From a virus (taxonomy: Duplodnaviria; Caudoviricetes), in the IMG/VR virus record IMGVR_UViG_3300020045_005903, positions 7,644 to 71,643 of that record: a DNA stretch of 64,000 nucleotides, one strand, 5' to 3'. Position numbers and translations under genes: made by a program. Positions 1,470 through 12,653 of the stretch are shown piece after piece; positions within the stretch are counted from its first letter, which is position 1, and each line of letters opens with the position of its first letter. The notes under the pieces were generated by a model. It did no database searches. It was not told the DNA's origin and worked only from the letters and a program-made list of their open reading frames with translations.

Positions 1470-1599
1470 CCATAACGTACCGCAGGTTTATTTAGTGCGG
1501 GATTTAACAGATAAATTAACTTAAAAGCAGAAAATATGAAATTACTAAAATGGCTATTTGGGAGCAGGAAACCCGCATTGAATAAACCTGTTGTTAGCG
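1470..1599. other. attC-like site S1
   Basis: CCATAAC ... arms 1483-1501/1572-1590 (19 bp, 2 G-T) ... GTTAGCG; ATG of next gene lies in the loop. Confidence 0.8.
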
Positions 1600-1799
1600 G
1601 TAGTCTTTCTTTCAAGGAGCAAATGAAACAAGATATTATACCGAGAGTTTGGCAAATGGCTGAAAAAGAAAAAGAGCATTTGAATTGGTTGATAGATAAT
1701 AACGCACCTAAAGATATGGTTGAAACAAGTCAGCGTTATCTCAGCCATTATAGACAAAGACATAAAGAATATATTGAGTATTCGGATGGTCTGTCATAA
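1536..1799 (+). CDS. Cassette-borne hypothetical protein
   Basis: 87 aa; N-terminus (KPALNKPVVSGS) is encoded by the right arm of S1. Confidence 0.75.
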   Translation: MKLLKWLFGSRKPALNKPVVSGSLSFKEQMKQDIIPRVWQMAEKEKEHLNWLIDNNAPKDMVETSQRYLSHYRQRHKEYIEYSDGLS

Positions 1800-1805
1800 G
1801 ATTAC

Positions 1806-1899
1806 CGCTAACGTAAAAGCATTTATGTCAGGCGGGCATAGATGCAACTTTAAATAATAATGCAAGTGTCCGCCCGCTTGCATAAATGCAGTGTTAGCT
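1806..1899. other. attC-like site S2
   Basis: CGCTAAC-GTAAAA-GCATTTATG(T)CAGGCGGG ... CCCGCTTG-CATAAATGC-AGT-GTTAGCT. Confidence 0.85.
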
Positions 1900-1909
1900 G
1901 CCGTAATTT

Positions 1910-2233
1910 ATGATAAAAGTTTATATAGCAAGTCCATACACATTAGGTGATGTGGCAGTAAATGTCAAACTACAACTTGACACAGTAGATGAATTGATGA
2001 ACAAAGGGTTTGCACCTTTTGCACCATTATATTCTCACTTTCAGCACATAGCACACCCAAGACCTTATCAAGATTGGGTTAAGATAGATTTGGAGTGGGT
2101 AAAGGTTTGTGATTGCTTATTAAGGCTTGATGGCGAAAGCAAAGGTGCTGATGGTGAGGTCAGCTATGCAAAAGAATTAGGTCTGCCAGTATTTTATTCG
2201 ATAGACGATATGTGTCTGTATTATGGCAACTAA
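1910..2233 (+). CDS. Cassette-borne DUF1937/DUF4406-like (nucleoside deoxyribosyltransferase-like fold) protein
   Basis: KVYIASPY ... CDCLLRLDGESKGADGEVSYAKELGLPVF pattern; stop TAA lies inside the TAAC of S3. Confidence 0.7.
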   Translation: MIKVYIASPYTLGDVAVNVKLQLDTVDELMNKGFAPFAPLYSHFQHIAHPRPYQDWVKIDLEWVKVCDCLLRLDGESKGADGEVSYAKELGLPVFYSIDDMCLYYGN

Positions 2234-2320
2234 CGGTATCGGGCTTGGCGAAGGTGGGCTTGTAGGATGCTCAATTTTAGCAGGATGTTTCTGCCCACTT
2301 TTGCCAAACCCGTGTTATAA
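2228..2320. other. attC-like site S3
   Basis: AACTAAC-GGTAT-CGGGCTTGGCGAAGGTGGGC ... GCCCACTTTTGCCAAACCCG-T-GTTATAA. Confidence 0.85.
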
Positions 2321-2389
2321 GCTGGCTGCGGTTATTTACCGAAAAACTCAAATCGAAGCACTAAACAAAAGAATTAAAAAAAAGAAGGG

Positions 2390-3169
2390 ATGGAAATAAA
2401 TAAAATATATAACGAGAATTGCCTTGATACGATGGCTAAAATGCCTGATAAGTTTGTGGACTTGGTAGTTACTTCACCGCCTTACAATATGCGAACAAGA
2501 ATAAGGAACGGACAATACACCACAAGAGAGAAAAGCGAACATTTTAGCAAGAAGTATAAGCATTTTGACGATGCCTTACCGATAAATGATTTTTACGAAT
2601 TTCATAGCAGCGTATTGACCGAACTATTAAGAGTATCGAAAATTGTTTGCTATAACTTTCAGATAGTAACTGGAAGCAAAGAAGCGTTTTTTAAAATCAT
2701 TGGCGACTTTAATAAGGACATTAAGGATATTATCATTTGGGATAAAGGAAGCGGACAGCCTGCAATGCACGGAATGGTTTTAAATAGCTGCTATGAAATG
2801 GTATTGATATTAGAAGATGACAAAAGAGCAGGAAGGGCAATACAGAACGCTAAATTCAAAAGAGGCGAAATGAATAACATTTTGAGAATTGGCAGAGGCA
2901 AAAAAGTATCTGATGTTCACGGTGCAATTTTCCCTGAACAACTACCATTTGATTTGATAAACGCTTTTTCAGAAAAAGAAACATTGATTTACGACCCTTT
3001 TATGGGAAGCGGAACGACTGGATTAGTAGCAAGTAAATTAGGCAGAAAATATATTGGAAGTGAAATAACAGAAGAATATTGTAAAATAGCTGAAAATCGT
3101 ATTAAAGAGTGCGGTGGGCTTTTTTTTAATTCTTTTGAAACGGAATTGTCAAACGAAGCAGGAACGTAG
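2390..3169 (+). CDS. Cassette-borne DNA methyltransferase (N4-C/N6-A, beta class)
   Basis: Motif IV TSPPYN before motif I DPFMGSGTT; CLDTM/DLVVTS N-terminus; IGSEI. Confidence 0.9.
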   Translation: MEINKIYNENCLDTMAKMPDKFVDLVVTSPPYNMRTRIRNGQYTTREKSEHFSKKYKHFDDALPINDFYEFHSSVLTELLRVSKIVCYNFQIVTGSKEAFFKIIGDFNKDIKDIIIWDKGSGQPAMHGMVLNSCYEMVLILEDDKRAGRAIQNAKFKRGEMNNILRIGRGKKVSDVHGAIFPEQLPFDLINAFSEKETLIYDPFMGSGTTGLVASKLGRKYIGSEITEEYCKIAENRIKECGGLFFNSFETELSNEAGT

Positions 3170-3177
3170 CAGCTTGC

Positions 3178-3195
3178 TTATAACTATTATATGTA
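3178..3195. other. attI-like terminal site of array 1
   Basis: TTATAAC followed by TATTATATGTA with no hairpin; 3181-3195 is identical to 12600-12614. Confidence 0.7.
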
Positions 3196-3277
3196 CGCAG
3201 GTCAAGCCAACTAACTAAATATCAATAAAATAAACTGTTAAAAACGTTAAAAATTACAAAGCTACAAAAACAATATT

Positions 3278-3679
3278 GTGAAGCTCGACATCTATTCCCA
3301 AAGGCTAATAACCCAACTAGACTGGTTATATAAAGTATCAGAAGTGTTTATCGTGAATGGTAAATACGAAATGGATATTTGTGACGCAGATGTAAACAAG
3401 CCTTATTTATATGACGATATTTATGACCAATTAATTAAAGAAAATTTTAAGATAGAGTTTGCGCCGGAAGATAAAAATAAAATGTGGCAAATGGCTCAGA
3501 AATGCTTTATTCGTAATGAAAAACGTAACCCTAAAGCCACAGATGAAGTATTGCTGCACAGATATTATAAGAGCTACCTAGCTAAGAAATATGTGCTATC
3601 AAGATTACCTGAGAGAATGAGAATACACGACGAGGAAACGGGGGAAGAAATACGAAGAATAGAATTAATAATTAAATGA
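3278..3679 (+). CDS. Hypothetical protein
   Basis: 133-aa ORF, overlaps next start. Confidence 0.65.
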   Translation: MKLDIYSQRLITQLDWLYKVSEVFIVNGKYEMDICDADVNKPYLYDDIYDQLIKENFKIEFAPEDKNKMWQMAQKCFIRNEKRNPKATDEVLLHRYYKSYLAKKYVLSRLPERMRIHDEETGEEIRRIELIIK

Positions 3680-3875: not shown

Positions 3876-4355
3876 ATGGAAAAATACTACACCCCATTAA
3901 TAGAAGAGTTTCATTACGGGTTTCAGTTTGAATACAAACACCCTCTACAAGTTGCAGGAGAAGAAGCGGAGTGGGCTCTGTATGATTGGAGAAGTTTAAT
4001 GGCTACTATTACACTACACCCTAAAGGCATATCTATTGGAGGATTTTCAATAAAAGATGAATGTTTAAGGGTAAAATATTTGGATGTGGGAGACTGTGAA
4101 GAGTTGGGATGGAAACACATAGGCTCACAATGGTATGACTTAATAGAAGTGCCTGGTAAATTAGGGTATTGGCTTTATGTGAGGTTTAGAAAATGTGGTG
4201 ACGAATCTTTTATCAAAGCATACCGTTACGACCCAAAGGAAAAGAACAAAGATACGGAAGGGGAAAATTACCAAGAAGAAGATTTTTTGTTCAGTGGTAA
4301 CATAAAGAACAAAAGCGAGTTTAAAAAATTAATGATTCAATTAGGGATTAAGTGA
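3876..4355 (+). CDS. Hypothetical phage protein
   Basis: 159 aa; KYYTPLIEEFHYGFQFEY N-terminus resembles a pattern recalled from Bacteroidota phages. Confidence 0.7.
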   Translation: MEKYYTPLIEEFHYGFQFEYKHPLQVAGEEAEWALYDWRSLMATITLHPKGISIGGFSIKDECLRVKYLDVGDCEELGWKHIGSQWYDLIEVPGKLGYWLYVRFRKCGDESFIKAYRYDPKEKNKDTEGENYQEEDFLFSGNIKNKSEFKKLMIQLGIK

Positions 4356-5989
4356 AAAGAGAAATAAGATATTATCAACAAGACGCTTATAATGCCGTTA
4401 TGTCCGCCAAAGCAAAGGGTCATAAACGAGTATTGATTACTATGCCTGGGGGTACAGGCAAAACATTCACTTGCGCTAACATAATCAAAGACTTTGGTCG
4501 CAAATGTTGGATTACACACGAAGAGTCCCTTGCCGAACAAAGCGCTATTGCCATCCTTACAGAAATGGAAATTTTACCCGAAGCAGATATTATTGAAGCG
4601 GTAAATGCTCACGGAGGATTAGTAAATTTACTTTCTAAAAAACCATTTTACTTAGGCGAAAACGCTAGAATAGTTTGGGAAAACGTCGGGATGGTTAAGG
4701 CAGACATATTTGATATTGACAAGCCATTAGTAATATGCTCAGCGCAAACTTTGTGGCGGAGACTCGATAAAATACCTAAAGATTGGTTTAGTGTTATTGT
4801 TTGCGACGAGGGGGATTTATTCGGATCGGTTAGCTTTAAGGCTCCTTTAGATTACCTAACTCCTGAATTAATTATCGGAGCTACCGCAACTGCATTTCGC
4901 GGAGACGGGATGTTAATGGAGGATATTTTTGAAGCATTAGTTTATGACTACCCTATTGAACAAGCCATAAAAGACAAATACCTTACCGAAATTAACGCCA
5001 TTGTTGTTCGCACATCCGCAAACCTAGACGAAGTTCATTCTTTTGGAGGAGACTTTAATCAAAAAGAATTGGTTGAAAAGGTGAATACTTTAGAGCGAAA
5101 TAATTTAATCGTTAATAAGTATATTGAGTATTGCAGCGGACAACAGTTTATTTGTTTTGGCGCAGACGTACAGCACGTAATAGACCTCCACGAAGCCTTT
5201 AAAGAGAAAGGAATAGTTACAACCTATGTGGTTAGCGATAAAGATAAAATGGAAATTGGAACTGACCGCAAAACTATTGTGCGAGATTTTAGGGAGGGTA
5301 AAATAATGGGACTTGTAAATTATAATATTTTTAGTGCCGGATTTGATGTTCGAGATTGCGGATGTGTAATTTTAGGCTGCCCGACAAAATCTAAAAGAAA
5401 GTTTTTACAACAGCTATATAGAGTTACAAGATTAAAAACCGAAAAGTTTGTAAATAAGTTCGGGCAAATAGGAACGGTTCTCGATATTGTTGATGGCACT
5501 TCTAAGCATAAATTAATTAACACTCACGAACTAGACAAAGGTAAGCCAATAGAAGATAGGGTGTTTGTTTCTAATGCAAACAAGCAATTATTAATTGAAG
5601 CTAGGGTTGCTAAAGACAAGGTTTTTGTTACTAATTACAGAAAAGAAGACAAGGTAGTTGATTTATTTAAATTGCCGCTAATTAAGATTAGCGACTCAAT
5701 GAGAATGGGAGAAATGGCTACCGAAGCTCAGCTAAACGCAATAGCTAAATGGGATTATGATATTGTAAATACCGTTTATACAAAGCGAATGATTAGTGAG
5801 ATATTCGGCAAACAAGAAGCTACTGCAAAACACATTTCGTTTTTGAAATGGAAGGGATATGATACGAGTGGATTTGTAAGTGTGGCAGAAGCGGCGGCAG
5901 CAAGTAAAGAGATTAAGCTAAGAGAAGAGAAGTTAGAGAGAGATAAGAACCAAAACAACATAAAAAATAATTTACCATTTAAATTTTAA
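4352..5989 (+). CDS. Superfamily 2 (DEAD/DEAH-like, ResIII/UvsW-type) helicase
   Basis: Q-motif RYYQQDA, Walker A MPGGTGKT, DEGD, GATATAFR, FSAGFD, QQLYRVTR. Confidence 0.88.
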   Translation: MKREIRYYQQDAYNAVMSAKAKGHKRVLITMPGGTGKTFTCANIIKDFGRKCWITHEESLAEQSAIAILTEMEILPEADIIEAVNAHGGLVNLLSKKPFYLGENARIVWENVGMVKADIFDIDKPLVICSAQTLWRRLDKIPKDWFSVIVCDEGDLFGSVSFKAPLDYLTPELIIGATATAFRGDGMLMEDIFEALVYDYPIEQAIKDKYLTEINAIVVRTSANLDEVHSFGGDFNQKELVEKVNTLERNNLIVNKYIEYCSGQQFICFGADVQHVIDLHEAFKEKGIVTTYVVSDKDKMEIGTDRKTIVRDFREGKIMGLVNYNIFSAGFDVRDCGCVILGCPTKSKRKFLQQLYRVTRLKTEKFVNKFGQIGTVLDIVDGTSKHKLINTHELDKGKPIEDRVFVSNANKQLLIEARVAKDKVFVTNYRKEDKVVDLFKLPLIKISDSMRMGEMATEAQLNAIAKWDYDIVNTVYTKRMISEIFGKQEATAKHISFLKWKGYDTSGFVSVAEAAAASKEIKLREEKLERDKNQNNIKNNLPFKF

Positions 5990-6683: not shown

Positions 6684-7088
6684 ATGGACAAAAAAGAAAT
6701 GGCTGAAAAATGTCACATTAACATCAGTAAATTTAAACACGCTAATTTATTGACTTGCGAGTGGTGTACTTATAAGCATAAATTAACTACAATATATTAT
6801 ACAGACAACGTAAACCCCGCCGCTTATTGCAGAGAATTGTGGTGGAGTTTTGTATTAAGGTGGCTAAGGCTAAAAAAATATATTACATTTGGAAAGCCAA
6901 CAAATATAGCTGTTATCGAACCTTGTCCGCCACCAATTAAGCAAACAGGGTTTGGAATTATTAAGGACGAACCAATTTCTAATTTTAGAATAAGGTTTGC
7001 AGGAGAAAAAATAAAAGCAATCGTTACCTCAGAAGTAAAAAAAGATTGCGATGGAAACATTTATTATGATATAAAGCCAACTGAATGA
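6684..7088 (+). CDS. Hypothetical protein
   Basis: 134-aa ORF. Confidence 0.65.
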   Translation: MDKKEMAEKCHINISKFKHANLLTCEWCTYKHKLTTIYYTDNVNPAAYCRELWWSFVLRWLRLKKYITFGKPTNIAVIEPCPPPIKQTGFGIIKDEPISNFRIRFAGEKIKAIVTSEVKKDCDGNIYYDIKPTE

Positions 7089-7453
7089 AAAGAATAAATC
7101 TTAACGAAGAGTTTATCCTAGAGGGTAGTGGAGTGTATGAGTTTATCCAAAAGGAGAAAGGAATATCCCTAAAGTTTATTAGGGAGACATACAAGAACCA
7201 CACTCCTAAACCAAAAAAGGAAATAGCAATACCCTTAGAGGCGGACGTTAAGAAATACGCTTCAGATAATGGTTACAATCCTAATTTTATGTGGGAGAAA
7301 ATGAAAGGATATATCGACGCAGGAATGACAGACTCTAGGGGAACCCAAATTAAAAACTGGAAGCTGAAACTTAATCAAGTGTGGTTTGTACCCGAACATA
7401 AAATAGTAAAAGACGAACAAAAGATAAAATTCTTTCAGAATGGAGATAGGTAA
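7085..7453 (+). CDS. Putative replication initiator/helicase-loader-like protein
   Basis: C-terminal W..G..IKNWK motif typical of phage replication proteins; two genes upstream of DnaB. Confidence 0.45.
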   Translation: MKRINLNEEFILEGSGVYEFIQKEKGISLKFIRETYKNHTPKPKKEIAIPLEADVKKYASDNGYNPNFMWEKMKGYIDAGMTDSRGTQIKNWKLKLNQVWFVPEHKIVKDEQKIKFFQNGDR

Positions 7454-9451: not shown

Positions 9452-10455
9452 GCAAGAAACCAACCACAGAAGTAACGGTATCTAATCCTAAACTTCAAAA
9501 AGACCTAGAGTTAGTCCAATCCCTACAAACCCAAGTGGACACCGTAGGAACTCAATTACTGCAAGTAAAAGTGATGGATGATTCCACACTATCAATCTGC
9601 CAACAAAACCTCTCTAAAGTCAACTCTATAGTTAAAACTATCGAAGAGAAACGAGTGGAACTTAAAGCTCCCTACCTTGAAGCCGGTAAACAAATCGACT
9701 CCCTTTGCAAGTCTATTACCGACCTAGCAGTGAAAAGTATTACCCACGCTAAGTCTGAAATAGCTAATTGGGAAAATGCTAGGTTAGCACTCGCCGCAGC
9801 AGCACAAGCTGAGGTTGACGCAAAAGCTAAAGCTGAAGCTGATAAGATCGCCGCAAATGAAACTCGTAAAAAAGGAATATTAGACTTTATTTCAACTACA
9901 CTTAAACCTTACCTTCAATCTACTTATGACTCTTTAAAATCAGCAGAGGACTGTGATGTATTCTTAGCTAAGATTAAAAAAGACTTTCCTGGAGAAGCCA
10001 AGTTTCAAGAATATTTACAGGACGCTAATCAAATTAGAGATAATTACATAGATTTAATAAATGGTAAAAAAGCTCAATTTAGTGCGGCGGCGAATATCTC
10101 TGAATCTGAATTAGCTTTAATGAAAGAGAAAGAAAGATTAACCCTAATGCAACAAGAACTTGACAATGAAAAATTAAGAGTTAAGCAGCTAGAGGAGTAT
10201 GCTAAATTAGAGAGAGAAAGAAAAGCTGCTGAGGAATTAGCAGAGCTAGAAAAAGCTAAATTACAAGCGGCTGCAGGCCTAGAGAAAACTAAAGGAGTTA
10301 GATACATTGATAAGTTTGAGGTGATAGATTTTGATAAAGTGCCAAGAGAATTTTTATGTGTAGATGAGGCTAAAGTTAAAGCTTATCAAAAGGAGAATAA
10401 AATAGGAGAGATTACCGGAATTAGATTTTTTAAACAATCAAGCATAGTAGCCTAA
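9448..10455 (+). CDS. Coiled-coil protein, DUF1351/Gp157/Gam-like
   Basis: Long coiled coil; KRVELKAPYLEAGKQID; C-terminal DFDKVPREFLCVDEAKVK; stop TAA forms the TAAC of S4. Confidence 0.55.
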   Translation: MSKKPTTEVTVSNPKLQKDLELVQSLQTQVDTVGTQLLQVKVMDDSTLSICQQNLSKVNSIVKTIEEKRVELKAPYLEAGKQIDSLCKSITDLAVKSITHAKSEIANWENARLALAAAAQAEVDAKAKAEADKIAANETRKKGILDFISTTLKPYLQSTYDSLKSAEDCDVFLAKIKKDFPGEAKFQEYLQDANQIRDNYIDLINGKKAQFSAAANISESELALMKEKERLTLMQQELDNEKLRVKQLEEYAKLERERKAAEELAELEKAKLQAAAGLEKTKGVRYIDKFEVIDFDKVPREFLCVDEAKVKAYQKENKIGEITGIRFFKQSSIVA

Positions 10456-10569
10456 CGGTTTGCACATTGGCGTTGTTGCCACAGAATTTAATTAAAAACA
10501 ATAAACTTTAATATTATGACAAAAGTATCAAACGAAGAGCAAAGCAATAACGCCAATGTGCTGTTAGGT
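10450..10569. other. attC-like site S4
   Basis: GCCTAAC (RYYYAAC) ... arms 10462-10479/10544-10561 (17/18 WC, 1 G-T) ... GTTAGGT (GTTRRRY). Confidence 0.9.
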
Positions 10570-10824
10570 GAAGTTACATTGTGTGTAGGCTTCAATGCTC
10601 ACCGATTAAAAGAGAATGACGATTATCACAAAAAAGAATGTGATTTTGTGAAAGCCATTAACCAAGAGATGAAATATAATAAAAGCACTTTAGCTCAAAT
10701 GGTGAACCATCCCGACCACAAAGAATGGCTTGAAGAAAATGAGCAAAAGATTGTGTTAAGCGTGATACAATGGTTAGGAACGCCAGTAGGACAGGGATTT
10801 TTGGAGAAGGTGGCAAAAATGTAA
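10516..10824 (+). CDS. Cassette-borne hypothetical protein
   Basis: ATG in the loop of S4; SNNANVLLGEV is encoded by the right arm and core. Confidence 0.75.
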   Translation: MTKVSNEEQSNNANVLLGEVTLCVGFNAHRLKENDDYHKKECDFVKAINQEMKYNKSTLAQMVNHPDHKEWLEENEQKIVLSVIQWLGTPVGQGFLEKVAKM

Positions 10825-10828
10825 TTTC

Positions 10829-11257
10829 ACCTAACGTTTTCGGGCTAAGAGAAGTAAAACCCTTTAGAGCGGTGGGGGATTTCATCGCTCAAATTAAATA
10901 TAAATAACTCAAATGGAAAAAACATTGAGCAACACAACAGCAAGCCAAGCCAAAGACAACGTGAAAGACATCGTGTTTTGGGGCAATGGCGACACCTTCA
11001 AATTAATTAGCAAAGCATCATCCAAAAATGAAGGTTGGATGAAATCTTCAAAGGCAATGGAAATTGAAGGTGTAGGATGCGTAGTGCAAGTTACCACCCA
11101 ACAAGGTGAGAATATTGCAGAGGCGGTAACTTTTGTACCTAATGTAAAAATTGAGGAAACAAAAGGTGATGATGGAGTGGTAACTTCTCGTAAGTTGATT
11201 GCCATTTAGTACGGTGCGTGGGCAAAGGGTTTTATTTCTTCTTAGCCCGTGTTATAA
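10829..11257. other. Giant attC-like site S5 with a gene in its loop
   Basis: ACCTAAC ... arms 10841-10865/11224-11249 ... GTTATAA. Confidence 0.8.
10913..11209 (+). CDS. Conserved phage hypothetical protein inside the S5 loop
   Basis: 98 aa; GWMKSSKAMEI..GCVVQVTTQQG..AEAVTFVP; AT-rich leader. Confidence 0.8.
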   Translation: MEKTLSNTTASQAKDNVKDIVFWGNGDTFKLISKASSKNEGWMKSSKAMEIEGVGCVVQVTTQQGENIAEAVTFVPNVKIEETKGDDGVVTSRKLIAI

Positions 11258-11296
11258 GTCAGGTGGGCATTTTCGCCCACTTGCGTTAAACAATAT

Positions 11297-11402
11297 GTTA
11301 GTGGTAGTGCTTTAGAAGTATGCCCTGGCTGTAAAACGAAAAATAGACATTGGTACGCAAAAGATTATTGGTGTTGTGCATTTTGTTAGCATTACCGCTA
11401 AC
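11297..11402 (+). pseudogene. Mini-cassette remnant with a start-less Cys-rich reading frame
   Basis: Ends GTTAGTGGTAGTGCT/AGCATTACCGCTAAC are complementary; frame VSGSALEVCPGCKTKNRHWYAKDYWCCAFC* has no in-frame ATG. Confidence 0.5.
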
Positions 11403-11474
11403 GTTTTGCAGCTAATGGCTGGTGGCTTTTATAGGCTGTTAGTTTGTGCCACTTGCCATTAGGTGCTGTTATGT
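11396..11474. other. attC-like site S6
   Basis: CGCTAAC-GTTTT-GCAGCTAATGGCTGGTGGC ... GCCACTTGCCATTAGGTGC-T-GTTATGT. Confidence 0.85.
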
Positions 11475-11535
11475 TGGTGCGCTGGCAAGTGTGTGGGGCA
11501 GTTTTATTTTATTAATTTTTAAAAAAGCGAAGGAA

Positions 11536-11808
11536 ATGAAGTTAACATTATTACAAAGATTAATTGAGTTTGTGATTCAATTTAAATACAAACATAATTT
11601 ACAGCCGACCTACAACTATAAGGTTGGTGACAAGGTGAAATATAACTGGAAAGGAAAAGTTATGCTTAGACCAGTTATAAACGATAGAGCAGAGGATGTT
11701 TTGGTAATAAATGAAGTAAAGCATAAAAGGAATGAGTTTATCAACTATCAAAATACAAGAACAAAAAAACGAGGATGGTTAGATGCTTACTGGTTAAAAC
11801 GTGCGTAG
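11536..11808 (+). CDS. Cassette-borne hypothetical protein
   Basis: Start moved from 11446 (inside S6) to MKLTLLQ after AAGGAA; YKVGDKVKY motif. Confidence 0.7.
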   Translation: MKLTLLQRLIEFVIQFKYKHNLQPTYNYKVGDKVKYNWKGKVMLRPVINDRAEDVLVINEVKHKRNEFINYQNTRTKKRGWLDAYWLKRA

Positions 11809-11837
11809 GCTTTTAAAAATTAATAAAATAAAATTGA

Positions 11838-11926
11838 ACATAACGGTTACAGCTTGCCGATAGTAAGGCAAATACCCGAAAAAAATAAAAAATCATTTGC
11901 CTTATTTTGGCAAGGTGGTGTTAAAT
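11838..11926. other. attC-like site S7
   Basis: ACATAAC-GGTTA-CAGCTTGCCGATAGTAAGGCAAAT ... ATTTGCCTTATTTTGGCAAGGTG-GT-GTTAAAT. Confidence 0.85.
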
Positions 11927-11968
11927 GCAGTGCGGACTTAATTAATAACTAAAAAATAAATAAATAAA

Positions 11969-12193
11969 ATGGCTGACTTAAAAACATTAGTAAAAGACAA
12001 CAAGGTGAAATTCGATTTTTACCGAGCAGGAGTAATGTATTACACCGTTACATCCGAAGAAAAAACATATCGCTTTCCTGTGCCACTTGAGGATATAGGA
12101 GATGCGACATTACTTGCAGAAGATAAAGCCATTTTATTTATGCGTTACATACGAAAGGCAATTAATAGCAATGAGCTTCAAACAGTGCAGTAG
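11969..12193 (+). CDS. Cassette-borne conserved phage hypothetical protein
   Basis: 74 aa; FYRAGVMYY..FPVPLEDIGDATLLAEDKAILFMRYIRKA. Confidence 0.8.
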   Translation: MADLKTLVKDNKVKFDFYRAGVMYYTVTSEEKTYRFPVPLEDIGDATLLAEDKAILFMRYIRKAINSNELQTVQ

Positions 12194-12199
12194 CATTGC

Positions 12200-12328
12200 A
12201 TTTAACGTTCGATGCTTGTGGCAGGTGGCATTAAAAGCACAAATGTAAATTAACCGATAAAGTAAAATTGAAAAACAGAATTTAATATTAACCGCAGACC
12301 GCCACTTGCCTACAAGCATTTGTTAGTG
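12200..12328. other. attC-like site S8
   Basis: ATTTAAC-GTTC-GATGCTTGTGGCAGGTGGC ... GCCACTTGCC(T)ACAAGCATT-T-GTTAGTG. Confidence 0.85.
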
Positions 12329-12350
12329 GTCTGTTTAAAAACAAAAAGCG

Positions 12351-12578
12351 ATGGCAGACTTAGAAAAAATTAGACAAGCACAAATGATTGCAGGTGAAAA
12401 CGCTGTGATTGCAGGATTAAAAGCAAAAGGATTGCTACCTAAAGATGAACAGAGCGAGGACTCGTTGCTATTTTTCAACTTATTTAGAGAAGTAAGAAAT
12501 GAAATAGCAACGGAGGAGGGCTATGTGCTGCAAGATGCAATACGAATAACATTTGATAGATGGATGAAGCGTGGGTAG
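12351..12578 (+). CDS. Cassette-borne hypothetical protein
   Basis: 75-aa ORF between S8 and the attI-like site. Confidence 0.75.
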   Translation: MADLEKIRQAQMIAGENAVIAGLKAKGLLPKDEQSEDSLLFFNLFREVRNEIATEEGYVLQDAIRITFDRWMKRG

Positions 12579-12596
12579 GCTTTGTTTTTAAATTGC

Positions 12597-12614
12597 CACT
12601 AACTATTATATGTA
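12597..12614. other. attI-like terminal site of array 2
   Basis: CACTAAC-TATTATATGTA; 39 bp upstream of the recombinase ATG; 15-mer shared with 3181-3195. Confidence 0.75.
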
Positions 12615-12653
12615 GGATTAACTTGTAATGTATTAAAAATTAAATATATAATT

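Follow-up and report, generated by a model that had tools for sequence, protein, structure and literature searches.

A recombinase-remote gene cassette array with its own docking site in a tailed phage genome: a probable platform of a phage-encoded integron-like system

Introduction

Whether gene cassettes can be exchanged at a site that lies far from the gene of the recombinase is a question raised by array 1, a run of three cassettes of one build, with one cargo gene each, in the genome of a tailed phage (Duplodnaviria; Caudoviricetes). The array occupies positions 1473-3184 of a 64,000-nucleotide stretch of DNA (hereafter the window), which comprises bases 7644-71643 of a single 71,643-base virus record (IMG/VR IMGVR_UViG_3300020045_005903; CheckV completeness of 94%), and a distance of 9.4 kb separates the array from the nearest recombinase gene. 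An original prediction, made from the letters of the window, held that one recombinase services this array and a second one in trans. The analysis presented here leads us to consider it likely that array 1 is a working, recombinase-remote platform of a phage-encoded integron-like cassette system; a different cassette is found at the same spot in a close relative, and the system therefore appears to work at more than one place in the genome.

Several known systems offer points of comparison. Classical integrons comprise the recombinase IntI, the site attI and cassettes with attC sites, the bottom strand of which folds and is cleaved in AAC. The pdif modules of Acinetobacter plasmids and the integrative mobile elements exploiting Xer (IMEX), of which CTX phage is an example, use 28-bp double-stranded dif-like sites (11-6-11) and the host XerC/D, with Xer enzymes able to use a folded single strand in the case of CTX phage. 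In the promoter early stem-loop (PeSL) modules of T4-type phages, conserved repeats are thought to recombine by homology, with neither a dedicated recombinase nor a docking site. Clusters of attC sites lacking integrases (CALINs) have been described in virulent phages by Qi et al. 2023 (PMC9892861), who show that IntI1 recombines some of these sites and read the clusters as parts of bacterial integrons, with no phage enzyme or docking site proposed. A full-text search of the literature, in which few subscription journals were covered, found no description of a cassette system in which a phage supplies both a recombinase other than IntI and the docking sites.

Results

Architecture of array 1 and its docking site

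The units of array 1 follow a single grammar, consisting of TAAC, G with 3-4 unpaired bases, an imperfect hairpin, T-GTTA, a short end sequence, the cargo open reading frame (ORF), the complement of the end sequence, and TAAC, with all of the features described here lying on the + strand. Site S1 (1473-1596), the TAAC of which is the upstream limit of the array, is composed of TAAC, G and 4 unpaired nt, an imperfect 20-bp stem, a 64-nt loop, T, and GTTA. Its hairpin opens cassette 1 (1477-1812), in which GTTAGCGGTAGT (at 1593) and ATTACCGCTAAC (at 1801) enclose a small ORF (1623-1799, or 1536-1799 if the start lies in the S1 loop) for which Pfam and PHROG searches gave no match. Cassette 2 (1813-2234) begins with the hairpin of site S2 (1809-1896; TAAC to GTTA, with bulged bases), and between the ends GTTAGCTGCCGTAAT (at 1893) and ATTATGGCAACTAAC (at 2220) carries an ORF (1910-2233) that encodes a nucleoside 2-deoxyribosyltransferase-like protein (Pfam DUF7768, 8e-10, and DUF4406; phrog_355, 2e-21). 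Cassette 3 (2235-3184) has the hairpin of site S3 (2231-2317; TAAC to GTTA), the ends GTTATAAGCTGGCTGC (at 2314) and GCAGCTTGCTTATAAC (at 3169), and a gene for an N6/N4 DNA methyltransferase (2390-3169; Pfam N6_N4_Mtase, 1.6e-33). The three hairpins and three cassettes with complementary ends of the original prediction were recovered, with every quoted string found in its place and with the folding and pairing statistics given below in agreement.

No hairpin follows the last TAAC of the array (3181-3184), with TATTATATGTACGCAGG coming next and about 55 nt more completing a secondary attI-like docking site that has no recombinase gene (3181-3245, + strand). The array ends in TAAC followed by TATTATATGTA, a junction equal to that found 50 nt 5' of the recombinase gene, where TAAC followed by TATTATATGTAGG forms the primary attI-like site (12600-12653, + strand; 50 nt 5' of the ATG) and closes array 2 (10453-12603, + strand), a recombinase-side array of five strong sites and about six cassettes with the grammar of array 1. 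Exact matches to the 14-mer AACTATTATATGTA occur in the window only at 3182 and 12601, the ends of arrays 1 and 2, and the predicted likeness in architecture between the two arrays extends to this identical 14-nt junction.

A third cassette locus lies outside (upstream of) the window, on the - strand at genome positions 4905-5610 (L001), with a hairpin (5605-5537), one cassette and a junction. Its cassette contains a 174-aa ORF (phrog_11053, function unknown) between 26-nt paired ends. The docking-site core of array 1 is equal to that of the primary site at 14 of 14 positions and to that of locus 3, where TAAC is followed by TATTATATGTACGCA, at 18 of 18. Beyond the junctions, the three loci align to one another and to the regions upstream of the recombinase genes of other phages over ~55 nt. 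The sequence after TAAC at locus 3 is TATTATATGTACGCAACCCC, which makes up a docking site similar to the primary one of another phage (L178). Of the earlier proposal that one recombinase services two loci, the single tyrosine recombinase of the genome was confirmed, whilst the number of loci was too low, being three with the one outside the window.

The 12-mer ATTACCGCTAAC, previously noted as being common to both arrays, is indeed found only at 1801 and 11391; it marks a common family of cassette ends, and as the cargos of the two cassettes carrying it are unrelated, it was not accepted as showing that arrays 1 and 2 exchange cassettes. The 106-nt cassette body at 11297-11402, with the same end family as cassette 1 of array 1, contains by eye only a very short Cys-rich frame (CPGC...CCAFC), which could be a zinc-ribbon mini-protein, or nothing.

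Folding of the sites and pairing of the cassette ends

When folded as single-stranded DNA, the + strands of S1, S2, and S3 give z-scores of -2.5, -4.7, and -4.0 respectively against 200 shuffles, with the - strand folding less well. Scanning the 71.6-kb genome for the pattern TAAC-stem...stem-GTTA returned ten sites at -16.7 kcal/mol or below, all in sense orientation and all within the three cassette loci, with one more long-span match at -16.3 kcal/mol and the remaining matches at -13.3 kcal/mol or weaker. This preference for the sense strand extends to the family, where G-T pairs make it the better folder in 102 of 116 unique sites (p 2e-16). G follows TAAC in 151/158 sites and T precedes GTTA in 148/158, and the unpaired stretch usually spans 4 nt at the 5' arm and 0-1 nt at the 3' arm. 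The sites range in length from 48 to 154 nt, with a core of 4 nt, and the hairpins of different sites have nothing in common in sequence beyond TAAC-G and T-GTTA; a search of Rfam found no family matching any site.

The two ends of each cassette pair with a mean duplex energy of -14.6 kcal/mol, compared with -6.0 ± 2.0 kcal/mol for pairing with the ends of other cassettes, and the observed mean is attained in none of 20000 permutations. All three cassettes of array 1 rank their own partner first, with the ends of cassette 1 pairing at -14.6 kcal/mol.

One site of array 2 (10832-11296) carries a whole 98-aa ORF in its loop and is followed by an 'empty' GTTA...TAAAC mini-hairpin. In another phage (L115) the same arms surround an unrelated 52-aa ORF, with the 98-aa ORF present at 87% identity in L044/L145, and both sides of the stem can therefore hold cargo. 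A sequence similar to GTGCGTAGG (GNGCGKDGG) is found in one orientation near the 3' ends of cassettes and in some leaders, and often provides the stop codon. It lies on the + strand at 3109, 10867, 11214, and 11801, with four of its seven matches in the window falling in arrays, and is also found in cassettes of relatives.

Variation at array 1 and transfer of its cassettes

The original prediction had set invariance of array 1 across relatives as its refuting outcome. What was found is another cassette in one relative, no array in a second, and a near-identical cassette in a third. The first of these is a 1.2-kb metagenome contig (L210), which encodes a homologue of the gene at 3278 (93% identical protein) and matches the window at ~95% identity on the right of the junction TAAC, with a different hairpin and cassette on the left; this cassette has paired ends of its own, GTTATGTGCTGG and CCTTGCACATAAC. 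In the closest long relative (L125, recombinase 86% identical), the promoter and the downstream gene are present with no array between them. The methyltransferase cassette (2313-3184), which adjoins the docking site of array 1, has 99.3% nucleotide identity over 872 nt to positions 8555-9426 of L131, where one other cassette of the recombinase-side array stands between the copy and the docking site. The recombinase of L131 is only 56% identical to the present one. The docking site of array 1 itself turns over cassettes, and the methyltransferase cassette was recently transferred between phage lineages.

Comparison with metagenomes, made with contigs, shows S1, the cassette 1 body, S3, and the methyltransferase cassette at 95-99% identity in contigs of four metagenomes from different habitats, with almost no phage backbone. 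Uncovered stretches of the window were not counted as absent in this comparison, and joints with sides of 20-30 nt were left out of the evidence. The cassette 1 body (1596-1815) has 3 differences in a lake metagenome contig, S1 is found with other flanks in three metagenomes, and S3 alone is likewise found with other flanks in metagenomes. A hairpin with 88% identity to S1 alone is also present in the L046 and L142 arrays. No close relative of the whole phage was found by DNA in the phage collection, nor among the viral contigs, which were searched with a single protein.

In the position of array 1, L125 contains a 103-nt match to the Rfam tRNA model (7021-7123, 45.5 bits), for which ARAGORN calls nothing.

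Cassette turnover at the primary site in relatives

The family comparison covered 60 loci with recombinases 37-86% identical, in which the strict motif TAAC followed directly by T[ATC][CT]TATA was sought within 140 nt 5' of the gene. This motif is present in 40/60 loci compared with 0.02% of control windows, with variant forms in most of the loci that lack it. Many independent assemblies end 50-200 nt 5' of the recombinase gene, as is expected if populations differ at that place. Matches of the exact 15-mer TAACTATTATATGTA in viral contigs are mostly due to chance, with four being true junctions.

Contigs that encode an identical recombinase (P0020) and are identical in the right flank have four different left flanks, every one of which ends in TAAC, and the left flanks likewise differ in a second group (L140, L044, L046, L047, and others). 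The clearest rearrangement is seen between L141 and L142, which have a common backbone (99.3%), docking site, and recombinase, with four blocks between them in changed order; three of these blocks are 100% identical and one is 97.7% identical, and each is bounded by TAAC on both sides and opens with its hairpin. When the ends of array blocks with 95% identity or more were counted without redundancy, 14 of 19 right ends and 10 of 20 left ends were placed at the TAAC core, and the likeness among cassette ends puts a further six left ends 11-15 nt before TAAC. Exchange takes place at TAAC, and cassettes are turned over and reordered at the primary site in relatives. As the crossover maps to the TAAC on the 5' side of the hairpin, each hairpin travels with its downstream gene, a unit which fits the presence of start codons in some loops and of whole ORFs in others.

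Two other sources of these patterns were considered and rejected. Prophage-host junctions (attL/attR) do not account for the variable left flanks, with the variable part of L141 and L142 lying between 99.3% identical phage backbone and the recombinase and containing the same blocks reordered; in the window, both arrays lie within phage genes. Assembly chimeras were set aside as the sequence shared at junctions amounts to 4-12 nt, under the assembly word length, and the hairpins differ in sequence.

Polaribacter phage P12002L and the Freya phages were also rejected as members of the family, with the TAAC/GTTA detector giving one weak site each. L208 and L209 are the cultured Polaribacter phages Freya_10 and Freya_1, and the ten Freya isolates span 43,978-48,920 bp, with the extra DNA lying just 5' of an integrase 29% identical to the present recombinase, after ...TTGCTAAC/ACCCCTATAAC. 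The Freya locus may represent a cassette platform of related type in which the site cores differ.

The recombinase

The only gene of the phage integrase family in the genome (12654-13487, + strand) encodes a Xer/XerA-like tyrosine recombinase of 277 aa, the catalytic residues of which are all kept across 34 relatives; its catalytic tyrosine is Y257. Relatives of this enzyme number in the hundreds, and the contigs of many are 40-78 kb long. Among curated profiles the XerA-like NF040815 scores highest, with 179 bits against a cut-off of 220, and with the IntI profiles TIGR02249 (141 bits, cut-off 265) and PRK15417 (63 bits, cut-off 435) both far under their cut-offs; profiles of XerC, XerD, and IntI score the recombinase about equally. 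The closest solved structures are those of XerA (4A8E, 9e-27) and the Vibrio integron integrase IntI4 (2A3V, 3e-25), with the alignment to the latter splitting where query residues 163-172 face chain residues 177-201, and the inserted segment of IntI absent. As the IntI-specific insertion is absent, the recombinase is not an integron integrase, and the system works like an integron without being one. Profile searches found no IntI gene in the phage genome. The association of this 277-aa recombinase with the junction suggests that it would be the catalyst, with the orphan docking sites serviced in trans.

A protein with an Acb2/Tad1 hairpin domain (counter-defence sponge family) is encoded 3' of the recombinase block of L115 (17105-17350).

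The promoter-like element and the surrounding genes

Just 5' of array 1 lies a phage promoter-like element (1380-1421, + strand) composed of TTTGCAACCTTT followed by GTATAAG. With no more than 1 mismatch, TTTGCAACCTTT has seven copies in the window compared with 1.26 expected, a number reached in 0/100 shuffles, and in six of these copies a (G)TATAA-like box comes next, with gene blocks downstream. The element proposed earlier to precede the array (1370-1423) is one of these seven copies. Members of this promoter-like family (TTTGCAACCTTT, 13-17 nt, and a (G)TATAA-like box) are placed at 1380, 9016, 13784, 32487 (- strand), 56140, 62257 (- strand), and 63877 of the window, and at genome position 7522 (- strand).

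Array 1 is situated between this element and a replication block, which starts with the conserved gene at 3278 and includes helicases at 4352 and 7634. The cargo ORFs are all oriented toward the docking site and the recombinase, with the promoter-like element at the opposite end of the array.

Discussion

A mechanism for cassette exchange

The architecture and turnover described above may be brought together in a single mechanism. In an excised circular cassette, the two complementary ends, written x' TAAC and GTTA x, would pair and lengthen the hairpin, giving a single long folded structure that may be compared with attC. Site-specific exchange at TAAC would then insert the cassette at a docking site composed of TAAC, TAYTATATGTA, and ~45 nt more, and the newest cassette would therefore be the one that adjoins the docking site. 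Three such sites would be available, one directly 5' of the single Xer-like recombinase gene and two orphan copies, at array 1 and at the third locus, on which the enzyme would act in trans. As the cassettes of array 1 lie between the promoter and the replication genes and point in the same direction, transcription from that upstream phage promoter is expected. We infer single-stranded folding of the sense strand, the existence of circular intermediates, and transcription of the cassettes from the upstream promoter.

Looking beyond array 1, we lean, with less assurance, toward a wider reading in which the phages of this group have an integron analogue of their own, with a minimal Xer-like recombinase reading folded sense-strand sites without the extra domain of IntI. 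The docking site would have been copied to other operons, with one enzyme feeding several platforms (three here) with anti-restriction and other accessory genes from a pool shared by phages.

A number of observations weigh against the proposed mechanism. The 99.3% match of the methyltransferase cassette starts at GTTA rather than at TAAC, and the upstream hairpins differ, with the hairpin 5' of the match in L131 being of the locus-3 type (93% identical) and not S3. Hairpins and bodies are also found apart in metagenomes, and together with the match limited at GTTA, this means that a second kind of exchange must exist. A rarer exchange at GTTA would stand beside the main TAAC-to-TAAC one, with folding of the other strand being what might cause it. 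Furthermore, one cassette matches L141 in leader and trailer with a differing ORF between them, and cargo has also been replaced within conserved cassette ends in some cassettes. The recombinase is without the insertion that classical integron integrases use for reading folded attC, and its tie to the sites is one of association. No relative was found near enough for strain-scale turnover to be seen. Additionally, no extra copy of the docking site was found in 37 relatives searched over ~10 kb around the recombinase, and multi-site arrangements may therefore be rare.

Alternative explanations

This last result would also be in keeping with an array 1 left as a fossil, its docking site and cassettes having been copied or captured and no longer being serviced, with only the recombinase-side array active. 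The absence of the array from L125, the closest long relative, points the same way, as does the lack of population-level variants of the exact genome to compare. A fossil is nonetheless improbable, with the docking core intact against both the primary and the locus-3 sites, with another cassette in L210 at the exact junction and ~95% identity to the right of it, and with the junction-adjacent cassette having a 99.3% copy elsewhere, as expected of a recent insertion. We regard it as somewhat less probable still that the hairpins are mainly signals at the RNA level (for processing, termination, or translation control), with the modules shuffled by illegitimate or short-homology recombination as in PeSL and the recombinase being an ordinary phage integrase. 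The better folding of the sense strand than of the antisense strand, the start codons contained in some loops, the separate assortment of hairpins and bodies, and the swapping of some ORFs between conserved leader and trailer would all suit such signals. However, the hairpins are unalike beyond TAAC-G and T-GTTA and therefore offer nothing for homologous exchange to act on, and blocks of 100% identity break inside a 4-nt core. That core, together with conserved non-hairpin sequence, precedes the recombinase gene in a family diverged to 37% identity, and the cassette-specific ends pair across the cargo, which is sensible only for a circular or folded form of DNA. An additional role of the hairpins in RNA is possible.

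The cores of the sites are the AAC and GTT of integrons, which raises the question of whether array 1 is a CALIN of bacterial integron origin, serviced during infection by a host IntI and not by the phage enzyme. IntI1 has recombined phage attC sites, and methyltransferase cargo is typical of the published phage CALINs (PMC9892861). Given the tight tie of the docking site to the phage enzyme, servicing by a host IntI is nevertheless unlikely, and we place it lowest among the alternatives. The junction is linked to a phage recombinase gene in 40/60 loci, the genes point toward the docking site, opposite to integron cassettes, and the sites have an asymmetric spacer particular to this family as well as long cassette-specific ends. 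Moreover, P12002L, a published case, has only one weak site of this architecture, and the present genome is without an IntI gene. Exchange of cassettes at array 1 by a phage-encoded system remains the explanation that we prefer.

Comparison with known systems

The resemblance of this system to classical integrons, both those of class 1 and the sedentary chromosomal integrons of Vibrio, is extensive. One tyrosine recombinase gene adjoins a docking site, the cassettes carry single genes, and the sites are imperfect hairpins with AAC/GTT cores, an unpaired spacer, bulged bases, and a variable loop. The cassette ends pair, the crossover lies in the AAC core, the newest cassette is placed by the docking site, and cassettes are common to lineages and reordered. 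The order along the sense strand of the phage (cassettes, AAC, docking site, and recombinase in sense) is that of the bottom strand of a classical integron. Integrons recombine a folded single strand with replicative resolution, a property to which the better folding of the sense strand in the phage sites speaks indirectly. In contrast to classical integrons, in which promoterless cassettes are read away from attI and driven by the promoter Pc, the cargo genes of the phage lie on the folding strand and point toward the docking site, with each hairpin placed 5' of its gene and sometimes holding the start codon or a whole ORF. The phage enzyme, at 277 aa, is Xer/XerA-like and lacks the IntI-specific insertion, the cassette-specific pairing of ends reaches 9-26 nt, the host of the system is a phage, and three docking sites are found in one genome. 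In terms of what defines an integron, hairpin sites (ten in the genome and 116 unique in the family, compared by cores, spacer, and folding) and a docking site by the recombinase gene are present, but an IntI-specific domain or profile and the orientation of cassettes with Pc are not. The system works like an integron yet is not one, differing from it in these two properties.

Array 1 shares with the phage CALINs (PMC9892861) the arrangement of attC-like sites without an adjacent integrase, and DNA methyltransferase cassettes are often found in those CALINs. CALINs are defined by at least two attC sites with no integrase within about 4 kb, and array 1, with three attC-like sites and the nearest recombinase 9.4 kb away, would agree with this in position. 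Unlike a CALIN, however, array 1 is closed by a docking site of its own, in a genome with a dedicated recombinase whose family is found beside that site. Xer-dependent modules such as pdif and IMEX also have a Xer-type recombinase and gene modules bounded by short specific sites, but the phage sites are hairpins of 48-154 nt with a 4-nt core and the enzyme is phage-encoded; no 11-6-11 inverted repeat was seen at the junctions by inspection. As in PeSL modules, small phage genes are flanked by stem-loops and shuffled between related phages, whereas the hairpins here are unrelated in sequence and the breakpoints fall in a 4-nt core.

Implications

Integrons have been taken as bacterial devices defined by IntI and its extra domain. 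The case presented here points to an integron-like system owned by phages, with a simpler Xer-type enzyme and several docking sites per genome. If this is true, the capture of cassettes through hairpin sites would have evolved more than once or would predate IntI, and phages would have a concrete mechanism for the fast turnover of small accessory genes in their variable regions, represented here by a methyltransferase and a nucleoside deoxyribosyltransferase-like gene. The system would also provide a compact pair of recombinase and site with which to study the recognition of folded DNA without the IntI domain. The specific point made by the remote array is that the docking site is separable from the enzyme gene, with cassettes still turning over.

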